DNA from: Candidatus Micrarchaeia archaeon
Lineage (GTDB): Archaea > Micrarchaeota > Micrarchaeia > CAILAH01
Reading direction: 5' to 3'
Length of the DNA stretch: 56,145 nucleotides
Assembly: GCA_038740245.1 (NCBI GenBank)
Contig: JAVYLZ010000002.1
Location: forward strand, 1-56,145
Shown here: in pieces, positions 18,001 through 24,000 of the stretch
How the letters are laid out: each line of letters opens with the position of its first letter
Position numbering within the stretch: the stretch's first letter is position 1
Program-made: the position numbers

Positions 18001-21000
18001 AAATCGCCGTCATATGAATACTTTGAGCACTGTTTTCTGAATAATGTATCAAAAATGGGTGTGGTAGCCAGGTCAGCACTGGCAAGGCCCGGATTTTATC
18101 CGCAAGGGGGTGGCGAAGTATCACTGTCTATTTCCCCTTCCACGCTGAAAAGCCACACGTTCATTGAAAGGGGCGGGCAGGTTTCAGAAAATGCGTATAT
18201 TATAAGTGCAAACCTGCCAGCGCACGTGGCACAGCGCGAGCAGGATTTCCTTTCCAGAAGCGGCAGGAAATTTGCATTCAGCAGCATGCAGTTCCAAGGG
18301 AATGCCAGCACCGGAAATGCAATAACGCTTGTATGCACGTTTAATGGATATTCGGTTGGCAGCGACGGCCTTGGTGCTGTTGGCAAGCCGGCAGAAAAAG
18401 TGGCGGCCGACTGCCTGCGCGCATACATAAGCGCAATCAATTCAGGTGCAGTTGATGACTATATGGCCGACCAGCTCTTGGTGTACTTTGCGCTTGCAGG
18501 CGGGGGCACCCTAAAATACAGCAATCTCACACCGCACACACGCACAAACATATACACGATAGAGCAATTCATAGGCAGAAAGTTCTCAGTAAACGATGAA
18601 GACCGCATAATTTCACTGTAGAATGTGGTGGCATTCATTTCCTGATTTTCCTGCTTGTGCAGTTGAACCCAAGCGCTCTGAGCGTGTCGCACTCTCGCGC
18701 GGCAAGAAGGCCATTCTTGCACACGATAACATACGGCTTTGACTTGTCTAGGGATTTGTAGTCAATAGGCCCGTCTTCCAAGCGGATGACTACCTCTTCA
18801 TTAGGGCTTTTGTTTTGCATTTTGCCGCCCGCTAATGTAACTATGGATACATCAGCCCCTTCAACCTCCCCCATTATTTTTTCGTATTCCCCATCAACTT
18901 CCCTTGCATGGGCACCCGTCGCCACACTCCCCTGTGATATGTTGCACAGCTCACCAATGAGTATTGAGCGTTCATACGTGCCGATCCTTCTTGCCTCACG
19001 CACAGTATCCTCCTTTGTATACGCTATAAGGGGCCTCAGCACAAGGCACTGCACGCCACTCTCTATGGCCGCCAGATTGCGTATGGTCTGCGTTGACACC
19101 TGCCCGACACTTTCACCGGTTACAATGGCATCGCATCGCAGCTGCCTGCACAGCCGCTCCGCGAGCGCATAAAACGCCCTCTTCAGGACAACCTGCCTTA
19201 ACTGCGGCTTAACACGCTCTTTTATTGCCTCTGCAATCCTGCCCCCGTCTACACAATAGAACCCCAAATCATTCCCGAACGCCCATTCATCCGCAAGTTT
19301 CCTGTAAACTTCATATGCTCGTTCAAGCGTTTCCTTCCCGCCCAGGTTTACAAACAGGAACGCCGGTGTGCACCCCCTTCTCATCATCGCCCACGCCGCG
19401 ACCGGCGAATCAATCCCTCCAGAGAACAGCACCACAACCTTGCCCTCAGAGCCGAGCGGCAGGCCGCCCGGGCCCGCTTCCTTTTTTGTGTAAGCATACG
19501 CGCGCCTGCCGCGCACCTCAACAAACACCTCAACATCATATTCCTTCAGGCTTACTTTTCCACCCTCCCTGCACAGGGCGGCCCCAACAACCTTCTGCAC
19601 ATCAACCGATGTAAAATTATGCGCCCCCTCCCTGCTGGCAGTCACCCTGAACTTTTTCCCGGCAACCTCTTTCCCGAACCTGCCGCATATTTTTTTTGCA
19701 AGGTCCTCAAGGCAGCTAAACTCAATAACCGCGGCACGTGCAAATGTGGCAACCCCAAATATTTTGCCGAGCCGCTCAGACAGGCATTTCATCTGCCTCT
19801 CATCTTTTGGCACAACAACAAACTTCCCGAACTCGGTTGTAATCCTCGCCCCACCTCCGCACGCACGCCTTATGTTATCCTCCAGCATGGCGCCCATGCG
19901 CCTGCGCACAGGCCCGCCCTTTATTGCAATCTCAGATGACGAGACAAGAAACACATCCATGCTAAAACTGCGCACAGCAAACATAATAATTGTTAGTTGC
20001 ACCAACTCTTCAGATGTGCGGTATAGTAGTTGCAATGTCATCAGATCCGAAGCTGAACTGGTATTCAAAGCAGATATCGCACAGGGGCACATCTGGTTAC
20101 GGTTCATGCACTGTTGACGGAATTATTTTTTTACACCATTTACATCCCATAGTTGGTGGCAATGTTATACAACCATTTAAAGGCAGAGGCATACTTGTTG
20201 CTAATTGTGAAATCTACAACTGGGAACAGCTATGCAATGAGTATGGCATTACAGCAAGGAATGACGCCGAGCTCTTATTCAGGATTCTTGAAAGCGAGGA
20301 TGATTTATCCGGCTCGCTGAAAGGCATACTCAGCAAGCTGGACGGGGATTTTGCGTGCGTATACTACAGGGACGGTGTGATTTACGCATTCAGGGACCCG
20401 CTCGGCGTCAACCCCCTATTCTACTCGCTAAACCCGCTTTTGCTTACATCAGAGCGCATAAATGAAGGCCAGCGCGAGCTCCACCCGCGCACCATAATCA
20501 CTTATAACATCAAGTCAAAAAATCTCAGGGCTGAATACAACGATTTTTTTTCACGCGCCCCGCCGCAGAAACCCCTCCCATTGCTGCTTGAGGAAGCAGT
20601 AATCAAGCGCATCCCGCAGGTGCAGTCAGGCCTTCTGTTTTCAGGGGGTGTTGACTCAGCGTATATCGCACTGTGCATGCAGGAGATAAACCGCCAACCG
20701 CGCCTGTATACGGCATACGTTGGCGATGATTCGCCCGATGCAAGGCACGCGCGCCAGTTTGCGAAAGATCACGGGTTTGACCTGTGTGAAGTGCCGGTAG
20801 CCGCAGATGAGCTCCGGCACTCACTAAAGGAAGTATGTTCCGCAATACACTCATCCGATTCCGTAAAGGTTGGTGTTGCAATCCCATTCCATTTTGCGGC
20901 AAAGGCAGCCGCACGCGACGGCTGCAAAGTGCTTTTTTCAGGGCTGGGCGCAGATGACATATTTGCAGGGTATGCGCGCTTTAAGGGCGGTGCAAGCATA

Positions 21001-24000
21001 CGCGGCGAGCAGCTGAGCTCGCTGAGGTGCATATACGAGCGCGACCTTTACAGGGACAACACAATTTGCATGAGGCAGGGCATTGAGCTCCGCGTCCCTT
21101 ATTTGGACCACCGGCTTGTGCTCGCCTCGCTTAATGCACCTGAAGCCGATGTTTCAGACAAAAAGCCGGTCCGGATGCTTCTCAAGTCCCGCTACAAAAC
21201 TGCCGAGCGGCATTATGCACGGCCGAAGAAGGCCGCGCAATACGGCTCAAATTCAATGGCGGCCGTGCGTGCGCTTGCAAAAAAGTCAGGTGTCCCAGTA
21301 GGCCAGTATCTTTATTCGCTCTCGGGCATACGCAACCTGCGTGTTGGCGCTCTTTATACGGGCGGCAAGGACAGTGCATATGCACTTTACTTAATGCTCC
21401 AGCGCAATTATGAAGTAAAATGCCTTATATCCCTCAAGAGCTCAAACCCGCACTCGTATATGTTCCACACTCCGCGAATAGATGCAGTTGGCGGCCACGC
21501 CGAAAAAATGGGTATCCCGCTTGTAAAGGTTGAAACAATGGGCGAGAAAGAGCAGGAGCTCGTTGACTTGGGGCGTGCGCTCTCACTTGCAATATCAAAG
21601 TATAACATTGAGGGTGTAATCACAGGTGCGCTTTACTCAGAATACCAGCGCTCGCGCATTGAGCAGGTGTGCGACCGGCTCGGCCTGTGTGTATTTTCGC
21701 CTCTTTGGCACATAGACCAGGAAATGCACATGCGCCGCCTGCTCAAGGACGGCTTCAAGTTTGTAATAACTTCTGTGGCGGCCGAAGGCCTTGGCAAGGA
21801 ATGGCTTAACCGCACAATTTCAGAGAAGGACATAGACGCTCTCGTAAAGCTTAACCGTAAATACGGCATAAATATTGCCGGTGAGGGCGGCGAGTACGAA
21901 ACTTTAGTTACCGATTGCCCCCTATTCAAGAATTAATTTATTCAACAACCGCCTTTATGCGGCGCACACCCGCACTCACCGCCTCTTCCTTAACAATCCT
22001 GAACTTCCCGATCTCTGCAGTGTTTTTCACGTGCGGGCCGGTGCAGACCTCCTTGCTTGCGCCGGGGATTGTATAAACAGACACGCGCTCGCCGTACTTG
22101 GCCGTGAAGAATGCAAGCGCACCCTCCTGTTTTGCCTCTTCTATTGTTTCTTCTTTTCTTTCAACAGGTATTCCCTGCCTGATCCACCCATTTACCAAAT
22201 CCTCAACCTGCCTGATCTGCTCCGGGGTCATTTTTTCGCCGTGCGTAAAGTCAAACCTTAGCCGCTCCGGTGTAATGTTTGAGCCCTTCTGCTGGACTGT
22301 TTCCCCAAGCACTTTCCTAAGCGCCGCCTGAAGCAGGTGCGTTGCAGTATGCAGCCGCACCGTCTTTTCGCTGTAGTCCGCCAGCCCCGAGGCAAACTTT
22401 TGCTTTGTGCCCTCGCGCGAGAGCTCCTGGTGCCTCGCGAGCTCCTCTTCAAACCCTTTCCTGTCAACAGATTTGCCACGTTCCCGTGCAAGTTCTTCAG
22501 TTATCTCTATCGGGAATCCATAACTCTGGTAAAGCAAAAACGCCTCTTTTCCCGGGATTATATCACCTACTCCCGATACGATTCTCTCAAACTCGCGCAT
22601 GCCGCGCTCAAGCGTTTCAGCAAACCGCCTTTCCTCGCGCTCAAGCTCCTGCATTACAAATTCCCTGTTCCTCTCCAGTTCAGGCCACATCTTCCCGTAA
22701 ATCCCTATGTAAATCTCAGCTATCTCCTTGCAAATGTTATTCCTGCCAATGCCGCACGTGCGCGCATGCCTTATGGCCCTTCTTATAAGCCGCCTGAGTA
22801 TATACCCGTGCTCAACATTGCTTGGCACAACCGCCCTGTCATCTGCAAGCACGAACACTGCTGCCCGCATATGGTCCGCAATTATGCGTGCACTCCTCTC
22901 ATTATATTTCGTTGAGTTCCTGCGTATCCATTCCATCACAGGCAAAAACAGCTCTGTCTCATAATCACTTTTTACACCCTGCATCACGGCAGCAGTCCTC
23001 TCAAGCCCCATCCCCGTATCAACATTTTTTTGTGAGAGCAGCTCAAACTTCCCATCTTTGGTCTTGTTGTACTGCATGAACACATCATTCCAAATCTCAA
23101 CCCACAGGCCGCAATGGCAGCCAGGCCCGCAGCCATCCTGGTCACACTCCCTCTCCTTTACCCCGGTATAGTAGAACATTTCAGTATCCGGCCCGCACGG
23201 CCCTGTGAGCCCTGCAGGGCCCCACCAGTTATCCTTCTTCCCCTTGAAGTAAATCCTCTCCCTTGGCACACCAAGCGAAAGCCACACCTGCGCGCTCTCC
23301 TCATCTTTCGGCGCATCCGCATCTCCTGCAAAGCAAGTGACTGCAATCCTCTCCTTTGGTATGCCCAGCCATTCTTTACCTGTTAGAAACTCCCAGCTCA
23401 TCTCAATTGCTTCCTTCTTGAAATAGTCGCCGAGTGACCAATTGCCAAGCATAAAGAAGAATGTGTGGTGGCTTGCATCGCCAACCTCATCAATATCATC
23501 TGTCCTGAGGCACTTTTGCACGTTTGCGAGCCGCTTTCCGGAAGGGTGCGGCTGCCCCAGAAGGAAGGGGACGAGCGGGTGCATGCCTGCAGTTGTAAAC
23601 AGCACAGTCGGGTCATTCTCAGGGATAACGGGCGCGGAATTGATTATCGCATGCCCCTTCAGCTCAAAGAACCTAAGATACTTCCTTTGTATCTCTTCAG
23701 CAGTGAACATACGCCACTTTAAGGCGTTAAAGTTAAATAAGGTTCAGGAGTGAATACTCGCATGCAGCCCGGCAACGCGCAAATTAAGATGCTCGCAGCA
23801 GCCGCACTGCTCCTGATTGCAGCCGCAGCGGTTTTCATATTCACACAGAACCAGGGGACCGAAGGCATGCAGCTGGAGCGTGTTGATGTTTCAATATCAA
23901 ACATTAGCGTCCAGGGTGATGCCCTCAGGCTCGGCGAGCCAACAACAATCACAGTATCAGCGCGCTCAACCAGTGAGGCGGCACAGTACCGGTTGGTTGT

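Follow-up and report, generated by a model that had tools for sequence, protein, structure and literature searches.

Fusions of an asparagine-synthetase-like protein to the diphthamide enzyme Dph6 have been on record since 2012, when AsnB (a class II glutaminase domain, GAT-II, followed by Asn_Synthase_B_C) was described joined to DUF71/Dph6 in Methanohalophilus mahii, Methanosalsum zhilinae and Ca. Nanosalinarum (de Crécy-Lagard et al. 2012, PMC3541065). In the passages of that paper devoted to the fusion, section 11 and the comment of reviewer Aravind propose that GAT-II gives ammonia to both PP-loop domains, and a reviewer raised a possible extra ligase subunit. Both the fusion and the idea of a built-in ammonia supply are thus already known; when a preliminary description of the locus studied here put forward a glutamine-dependent ammonia feed for Dph6 as new, it was plausible but already published. 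The function of the Dph6 family is established in yeast, where Dph6 cannot do without the RidA-like domains fused to it, which have been proposed to generate ammonia; human Dph6 is reported to function in yeast without extra domains.

The gene lies in a window of 56,145 nucleotides (contig JAVYLZ010000002.1 of a Candidatus Micrarchaeia archaeon), the whole stretch of DNA that was analysed. It occupies 20014..21936 on the + strand, with ATG at 20014, 640 codons free of internal stops and TAA at 21934-21936, and encodes a protein that begins Met-Cys-Gly-Ile-Val and joins GAT-II, an AsnB-type PP-loop adenylation domain (SYN) and Dph6. Pfam places GATase_6 at residues 39-139, GATase_7 at 53-146, Asn_synthase from 191 and Diphthami_syn_2 at 443-639; with TIGR03679, these matches bear out the earlier domain reading of class II amidotransferase, Asn_synthase and Dph6. 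An AlphaFold2 model of the 640-aa fusion (mean pLDDT 96.4, pTM 0.93) and Atlas's own model (pTM 0.88) both place the three domains confidently together; a GAT-less form, from a shallower alignment, reached a pTM of 0.76 as against 0.93. The fusion is flanked by divergent thiI (18635..19960, - strand, start codon approximate; Pfam ThiI/THUMP) and convergent alaS (21938..23710, - strand; NF002436 above cut-off), which ends one base past its stop. Across loci L010-L118, thiI adjoins the fusion in only three, all from the source's own family (f1), so the thiI neighbourhood noted previously is local synteny that does not reach beyond this family, and a functional link to thiI was ruled out on that ground. 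Beyond small kin groups, no recurring functional neighbour was found in loci L010-L094.

The Dph6 domain (residues 442-640; 21337..21933, + strand) scores 259.5 against TIGR03679, above the curated cut-off of 197.3, and its fold matches PDB 3rk1 and 2d13 with an rmsd of 1.2-1.5 over ~200 residues. It retains the PP-loop and all nine PF0828 residues (S44, Y45, E78, Y103, Q104, A149, E183, E186 and E188, aligned to S481, Y482, E515, Y544, Q545, A590, E624, E627 and E629). The domain spans only model positions 2-195 of 218, its C-terminal subdomain lacking the last ~25 family residues, and its earlier designation as complete is not exact. The short end is genuine because close relatives share it: 12 of 149 aligned proteins have their last residue at most 4 positions from the same Phe, and 108 carry 25-39 residues more. 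This is the only Dph6 copy in the source genome, where the pathway partners listed in the preliminary description (Diphthamide_syn, TP_methylase and EF-2) were confirmed as Dph2, Dph5 and EF-2, and where glutamine synthetase is also present. EF-2 carries His-Arg-Gly-Pro-Ala-Gln, which we take to be the motif relevant to diphthamide.

The GAT-II domain (residues 1-182; 20014..20559, + strand) is identified by Pfam GATase_6/7 and by profile matches to AsnB, ASNS and PurF chains. It has the features of an Ntn glutaminase: a Cys straight after the initiator Met and equivalents of Asn74, Glu76 and Asp96/98. Cys2 (20017..20019, + strand), present in 117 of 120 homologues, would be the nucleophile once Met1 is removed, as we infer it is; together with Arg24, Asn64, Glu66 and Asp84 it is kept in 117-120 of 120. 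The glutamine-pocket residues Arg48/49 and Gly75 are absent family-wide. Leu43-His44 (20140..20145, + strand) replaces AsnB Arg49-Leu50, the Arg corresponding to human ASNS Arg48, which has a role in glutamine recognition; position 43 is Leu in 119 of 120 homologues and Arg in none, and position 44 is His in 114. Asn64-Cys65-Glu66 (20203..20211, + strand; 119, 111 and 119 of 120, respectively) replaces Asn74-Gly75-Glu76. Judged from these alignments, the pocket is altered, by Arg48 to Leu and Gly75 to Cys.

In SYN (residues 188-437; 20575..21324, + strand; Pfam Asn_synthase), homologues conserve the SGGxDS loop (S210-S215), D242, D315, Y320, D344, R347 and the catalytic Lys, K405. Leu311 (20944..20946, + strand) replaces an essential glutamate (human E364, E. 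coli E348; the role of the E. coli position rests on human E364, whose E364A/Q variants are inactive). Glu was found at this position in none of 76 locus frames and in none of 30 further Micrarchaeota loci, six of which repeat fusion genes among the 76. Scores against the AsnB model TIGR01536 (173.1, cut-off 267.1) and PRK09431 (132.6, cut-off 499) fall below threshold.

The fusion was found in Woesearchaeota, Iainarchaeum, Altiarchaeota, Methanosarcinaceae (the query aligns with Methanolobus and Methanohalophilus loci along all or most of its length) and some Micrarchaeota. It is not typical of this phylum: the three-domain form occurs in 4 of 151 Micrarchaeota genomes and the GAT-less form in 2. 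The 481-aa gene previously taken for a partial fusion (genome G007, there called G015) is an entire gene without GAT-II. Seven loci encode SYN-Dph6 with no GAT-II in frame or nearby, three carry SYN and dph6 as separate neighbours (the search pattern biases this selection), and the GAT-II Cys is absent from 6 of 65 three-domain frames; GAT-II is therefore the dispensable part of the fusion: several lineages have lost it or keep it in decayed form, yet retain SYN. GAT-less forms occur at scattered places in the tree, and SYN genes of this kind lie apart from dph6 in families f2, f7 and f9. Dph6 is present in 41 of 45 genomes of family f3, none of which has a SYN match, and SYN was not found in 22 of 25 f4 genomes; most genomes of both families have Dph6, and many relatives manage with Dph6 alone. 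The Dph6 of the source family clusters with fused proteins of the Woesearchaeota type rather than with the Micrarchaeota Dph6 that stand alone. Horizontal acquisition was nonetheless unsupported: in an AU test on a selection of 46 of the 210 rows, one single clade for the Micrarchaeota was not rejected (p 0.288).

A class I glutaminase, unrelated to GAT-II, is also tied to dph6. Eight of 148 new representatives were Dph6 fused to such a domain, with its Cys in 7 of 8 and His-Pro-Glu in all 8. In another archaeal order the enzyme matched in 19 of 71 genomes; it lies on the same strand at most 3.3 kb downstream of dph6 in 17 of the 19, directly adjacent in 12. None of five genomes with the dph6-linked glutaminase yielded GMP synthase subunit B, a profile search found no similar glutaminase in the source genome, and we found no report of the link in the literature. 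The passages of PMC3541065 on the fusion make no mention of class I partners, altered residues or GAT-less forms. The link is plausibly convergent with the GAT-II fusion and in that sense counts for the ammonia-supply idea. We tentatively suggest, with the odds somewhat against us, that many archaeal Dph6 proteins are glutamine-dependent, two unrelated glutaminases having been recruited independently (class II fused with SYN; GuaA-like class I, encoded in an operon or fused at the C-terminus, in a different order of small archaea), and that the GAT-less, glutamate-less SYN family, which is common in these genomes, would be a separate amide ligase, possibly translation-linked.

From the architecture, conservation and distribution observed in this analysis, the activities and nitrogen transfer can be predicted as follows. 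The Dph6 domain, to go by its conserved residues, would almost certainly adenylate the diphthine carboxyl on EF-2, with ammonia displacing AMP to yield diphthamide. GAT-II quite probably hydrolyses an amide, most likely glutamine, via its N-terminal Cys in the altered pocket, and SYN is probably a second active adenylating amide ligase, acting on a carboxylate other than free aspartate. Ammonia from GAT-II would pass to SYN along a route of the AsnB type; to get to Dph6 it would be released and diffuse a short way, no tunnel being proven. In lineages without GAT-II, both domains would draw on free ammonia or some other donor. We give an even chance to a bifunctional enzyme whose two amide-forming activities draw on a common ammonia source, and glutamine-to-diphthamide nitrogen transfer by the fusion may be put at about even odds. 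In the balance for a shared source we counted the sole Dph6 copy, the pathway genes, the conserved GAT-II residues, the confident domain placement, class I convergence and the yeast RidA-like domains; against it, the dispensable GAT-II, its altered pocket, few GAT-Dph6 couplings, the Dph6-alone relatives and human Dph6 in yeast.

In a rival account, possible though less likely, two unrelated enzymes share one chain: GAT-II serves SYN alone through an AsnB tunnel, SYN amidates another substrate, Dph6 uses free ammonia, and the fusion secures only co-expression. In a coevolution run of 210 rows, weak evidence at that depth, the highest-ranking couplings between domains were GAT-SYN pairs (ranks 8, 14 and 15), and only two GAT-Dph6 pairs entered the top 100 (ranks 92 and 97). 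In ASNS a gated tunnel is described that connects the glutaminase with the synthetase site of that same enzyme, most of the phylum has Dph6 as a stand-alone protein, and GAT-less SYN genes occur away from dph6. Against this account count a fusion kept across the lineages named above, split forms that are still neighbours in the three loci (subject to the same search bias) and a second glutaminase class independently tied to dph6.

The same weak run placed nine SYN-Dph6 pairs in its top 100, clustered on Dph6 residues 553 and 585-586, as might be expected if SYN, not GAT-II, were the true partner of Dph6 and worked within the EF-2/diphthamide pathway, with EF-2, diphthine or some related component of translation as its target. 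SYN is present in 72 of 72 AsnB-type fusion frames, its PP-loop and Lys/Arg405 are kept even where GAT-II is lost, and the extra ligase subunit raised in review (PMC3541065) would suit such a role. SYN and Dph6 are covalently adjacent, though, so some contact is expected, and SYN was not found in any of the 45 f3 genomes or in 22 of 25 f4 genomes, most of them with Dph6. We know of no SYN-type step in this pathway, and consider this account rather improbable.

It is quite improbable that the AsnB half works as a normal asparagine synthetase feeding AsnRS, with Dph6 a passenger or sharing its ammonia. The source genome (81% complete) has AsnRS and GatE and no GatB match, so it would need free asparagine, and the fusion is its sole Asn_synthase match above cut-off; the closest fold is AsnB, and the D367/E368-equivalent acids, D344, R347 and K405 persist. 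Against this, the E364 equivalent is never Glu and the scores are below the AsnB cut-offs. AsnRS was not seen in 19 of 29 fusion-bearing genomes, 18 of which have GatB and therefore do not need free asparagine for translation. Because the glutamate is absent and most of the fusion-bearing genomes examined show no AsnRS, the AsnB half probably does not act as an asparagine synthetase, which weakens the fallback offered earlier that it may simply make asparagine. Finally, a sequencing or assembly error joining two genes, which nothing favours beyond a genome 81% complete in 41 contigs, is excluded for practical purposes by more than 100 end-to-end homologues (among 1359 matches at E<=1e-20, nearly all of the top 119 other proteins cover 91-100% of the query; the closest among the matches listed has 78% identity across all 640 residues, another 61%) and by the same single frame in G043 and G030, relatives at genus and family level, which with the stop-free frame and Pfam domains uphold the original claim of one frame joining an AsnB-like unit to Dph6.

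The fusion is no discovery beyond what those passages of the 2012 paper already describe; the part worth following is the class I glutaminase link in other genomes. The protein offers a single-chain test case for glutamine-fed diphthamide formation, and belongs to a large archaeal AsnB-like family labelled asparagine synthase yet without a residue which that activity needs.

Compared with the AsnB-DUF71 fusions in the passages of PMC3541065, our protein has an identical set and order of three domains, and the ammonia hypothesis is shared; it differs in its Micrarchaeota host and a C-terminus ~25 residues shorter. Archaeal Dph6 (PF0828, PDB 3rk1; PH1257, PDB 2d13) shares its PP-loop, nine residues and fold, the N-terminal AsnB-like unit being the fusion's addition, whereas yeast Dph6/YLR143w bears C-terminal RidA-like domains instead. 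E. coli AsnB (1ct9) and human ASNS (6gq3) share its fold, domain order, Ntn Cys, Asn74, Glu76, Asp96/98, SGGxDS and catalytic Lys, but the fusion is shorter, falls under the NCBIfam cut-offs and has Leu for Arg48, Cys for Gly75 and Leu for Glu364. The AsnB half presumably also resembles eukaryotic ASNSD1 in its motifs; a link to ASNSD1 was unsupported, as no pairing with diphthamide was found in the literature and two Atlas searches brought up no eukaryotic cluster. Amidoligases such as GMP synthase couple a glutaminase to a substrate-adenylating ATP pyrophosphatase of the PP-loop type. Relative to these, the fusion has one glutaminase and two PP-loop domains, one with a modified protein as its substrate, and the coupling is putative.

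A single uninterrupted frame on the forward strand (20014-21936; 640 residues, starting Met-Cys-Gly) joins an AsnB-like unit to Dph6, as the preliminary description had it, with the Pfam domains GATase_6/7 (residues 39-146 of the fusion protein), Asn_synthase (from residue 191) and Diphthami_syn_2 (443-639) in that order; we refer to the three parts as GAT-II (glutaminase), SYN (AsnB-type PP-loop domain) and Dph6. The protein passes the TIGR03679 cut-off (259.5 versus 197.3), but the Dph6 part, previously called complete, ends about 25 residues before the family's end, as it does in close relatives. 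The best fold matches of its AlphaFold2 model (149 sequences; pLDDT 96.4, pTM 0.93) are the E. coli AsnB, human ASNS and Pyrococcus Dph6 structures. It belongs to the Dph6 family and to an AsnB-DUF71 fusion class defined in 2012, and both the fusion and its ammonia-supply idea, which had been taken as new, are already known: the relevant passages of de Crécy-Lagard et al. 2012 (PMC3541065) describe proteins in which an AsnB unit, divided into GAT-II and Asn_Synthase_B_C, precedes DUF71; the carriers are Methanohalophilus mahii, Methanosalsum zhilinae and Ca. Nanosalinarum. The proposal there is that GAT-II supplies NH3 to both domains, and the reviewer Aravind raised the question of which role the middle domain plays. 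We found no bench test of an AsnB-like–Dph6 fusion in the open-licence literature, and the matched text of Narrowe et al. 2018 (PMC6143161) does not mention the fusion.

The source genome (assembly 81% complete) holds no other Dph6 match and no other Asn_synthase match over the cut-off; it also encodes glutamine synthetase and, in line with the preliminary description, Dph2, Dph5 and EF-2. The thiI and alaS genes beside the fusion gene are local synteny of its family within the phylum (f1); among the loci compared, thiI adjoins the fusion gene in three, all from f1. Elsewhere in the window lie an 83-aa ORF without a Pfam match (17274-17525) and a 221-aa frame combining DUF357 and NUDIX domains (27768-28433).

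The reading we prefer, to which we give about even chances, is that the Dph6 domain would make diphthamide, GAT-II would release ammonia for SYN as well as for Dph6, and SYN would amidate a substrate other than aspartate. The PP-loop of Dph6 is retained, together with each of the nine residues given for Pyrococcus PF0828. GAT-II keeps Cys2 (117 of 120 homologues), Arg24 (118), Asn64 (119), Glu66 (119) and Asp84 (120), and the protein is predicted to work like a glutamine amidotransferase. The glutamine-recognition network set out by Zhu et al. 2019 (PMC6748925) comprises Arg48, Asn74, Gly75, Glu76 and Asp96 (human ASNS numbering); here the Arg48/49 position is Leu in 119/120 homologues and Arg in none, the next residue is His in 114/120, and the Gly75 position is Cys in 111/120. 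The N-terminal Cys is missing from 6/65 three-domain frames. Five loci (L041, L044, L052, L068, L072) have a GAT-II lacking this Cys and other motifs beside intact SYN and Dph6. Two fusions carry about 330 extra N-terminal residues, GTPase-like at the start by eye in locus L040 (16-3150) and an SMC N-terminal part in protein P0122; these would bury the Ntn Cys and may be assembly artefacts.

It is possible, if less probable, that the enzymes are independent and free ammonia serves Dph6. Against it stands the best support for the idea that archaeal Dph6 can draw its nitrogen from glutamine, although this concerns other genes. Eight representatives carry a C-terminal class I glutaminase on Dph6, with Gly-Ile-Cys-x-Gly in 7/8 and His-Pro-Glu in 8/8, and cluster with stand-alone Dph6, away from AsnB-type fusions. 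Among 71 genomes from the order that includes G185, the query matched in 62 and a class I glutaminase in 19, lying on the same strand at most 3.3 kb downstream of dph6 in 17 of these (16/18 without G185, chosen for its arrangement); 12 of the 17 directly adjoin dph6, and the other two of the 19 are on other contigs. The linked glutaminases fall below GMP synthase A cut-offs, and no GMP synthase B turned up in the five genomes with one that were examined. The pair is a candidate two-subunit glutamine-dependent Dph6, a link found neither in the consulted text and supplements of PMC3541065 nor in the open-licence literature searched. Examples of the type, dph6 fused to or followed by the glutaminase, are L153 (1501-2720; genome G201, whose two genes share a four-base overlap), L077 and proteins P0228, P0242, P0246, P0247, P0254, P0257, P0267 and P0268. 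Other Dph6 fusions carry an 8-oxoguanine glycosylase domain (P0252) or DUF429 (P0240); the source genome has an Ogg-like ORF, by eye, beside gatE (L004, 274-975).

That SYN is a pathway partner of Dph6 appears improbable. Across 151 genomes of the phylum, the three-domain fusion occurs in 4 and a GAT-less SYN-Dph6 fusion in 2, with some match to the query in 119, mostly stand-alone Dph6 (G029 contributes one stand-alone row). Carriers of the fusion among the matches listed (79 loci from named records; 80 kept of 582 candidates) are Woesearchaeota, Nanoarchaeota, Iainarchaeum, Altiarchaeota, Methanolobus, Methanohalophilus and other Methanosarcinales-labelled records. SYN-Dph6 without GAT-II was seen at seven loci and separate neighbouring SYN and dph6 genes at three, and GAT-less forms recur at many points in a tree of weak resolution. 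In family f3, 41/45 genomes carry Dph6 and 0/45 SYN, while in f9 26/27 carry a stand-alone SYN; SYN is no general requirement of Dph6. GAT-less SYN-Dph6 forms whole genes at L093 (1486-2877; G052), L094, L053, L056, L057, L083 and L087, and an Atlas cluster holds 84 such proteins. Stand-alone AsnB-type PP-loop proteins of 250-300 aa (L124, L128, L130, L132-L137, L139-L148), without a glutaminase domain or E364, are nearly universal in f2, f7 and f9, with none found in f3.

Plain asparagine synthesis by the AsnB half is about as improbable. The E364A and E364Q variants are inactive, according to the mutant data in Zhu et al. 2019 (PMC6748925). Leu311 of SYN sits at this position, and Glu was found there in 0/76 locus frames (65 three-domain frames, with one record entered twice, 7 GAT-less frames and 4 others) and 0/30 further Micrarchaeota loci, six of which repeat fusion genes of the first set. 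Both AsnB models score below cut-off (173.1 versus 267.1; 132.6 versus 499), and by sequence the protein fails tests for asparagine synthetase B. The SYN PP-loop, Tyr320, Asp344, Arg347 and Lys405 are conserved, alongside the family-specific invariants Lys285, Glu342, Tyr346 and Gln409-Tyr410; we infer that SYN is probably an active adenylating enzyme acting on something other than aspartate. The source genome encodes AsnRS, AspRS and GatE, with no GatB match in the 81% complete assembly; on contig C10 (L001/L002) a gap of 32 bases separates its head-to-head asnS and aspS genes. Among 29 three-domain-fusion genomes, hand-picked from named loci, AsnRS was found in 10 (one being G167) and not in 19, 18 of which have a GatB match (17 over cut-off). 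Related genomes in this sample are not independent and assemblies may be incomplete, but AsnRS was found in 0/14 Methanosarcinales-like genomes.

An artefactual join, which the preliminary description had left open, is ruled out as a sequencing error and has almost no probability in any form, because nearly all of the best 119 of 1359 homologues (E<=1e-20 among 7999 scored; query excluded) cover 91-100% of the query.

The ASNS tunnel, as described in PMC11615228, connects the glutaminase with the synthetase site of the same enzyme. A GAT-less fusion modelled from 67 sequences reached a pTM of 0.76 versus 0.93 for the three-domain protein, a drop that fits Dph6 being better held with GAT-II present; in coevolution analysis (210 rows), 77 of the top 100 pairs fell within domains (background 33%) and the inter-domain ones comprised 12 GAT-SYN, 9 SYN-Dph6 and 2 GAT-Dph6, which fits Dph6 resting mainly on SYN; both hints are weak, and they disagree. 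In the pertinent results of Uthman et al. 2013 (PMC3585130), yeast Dph6 requires its RidA-like domains, and human Dph6 complements without them.
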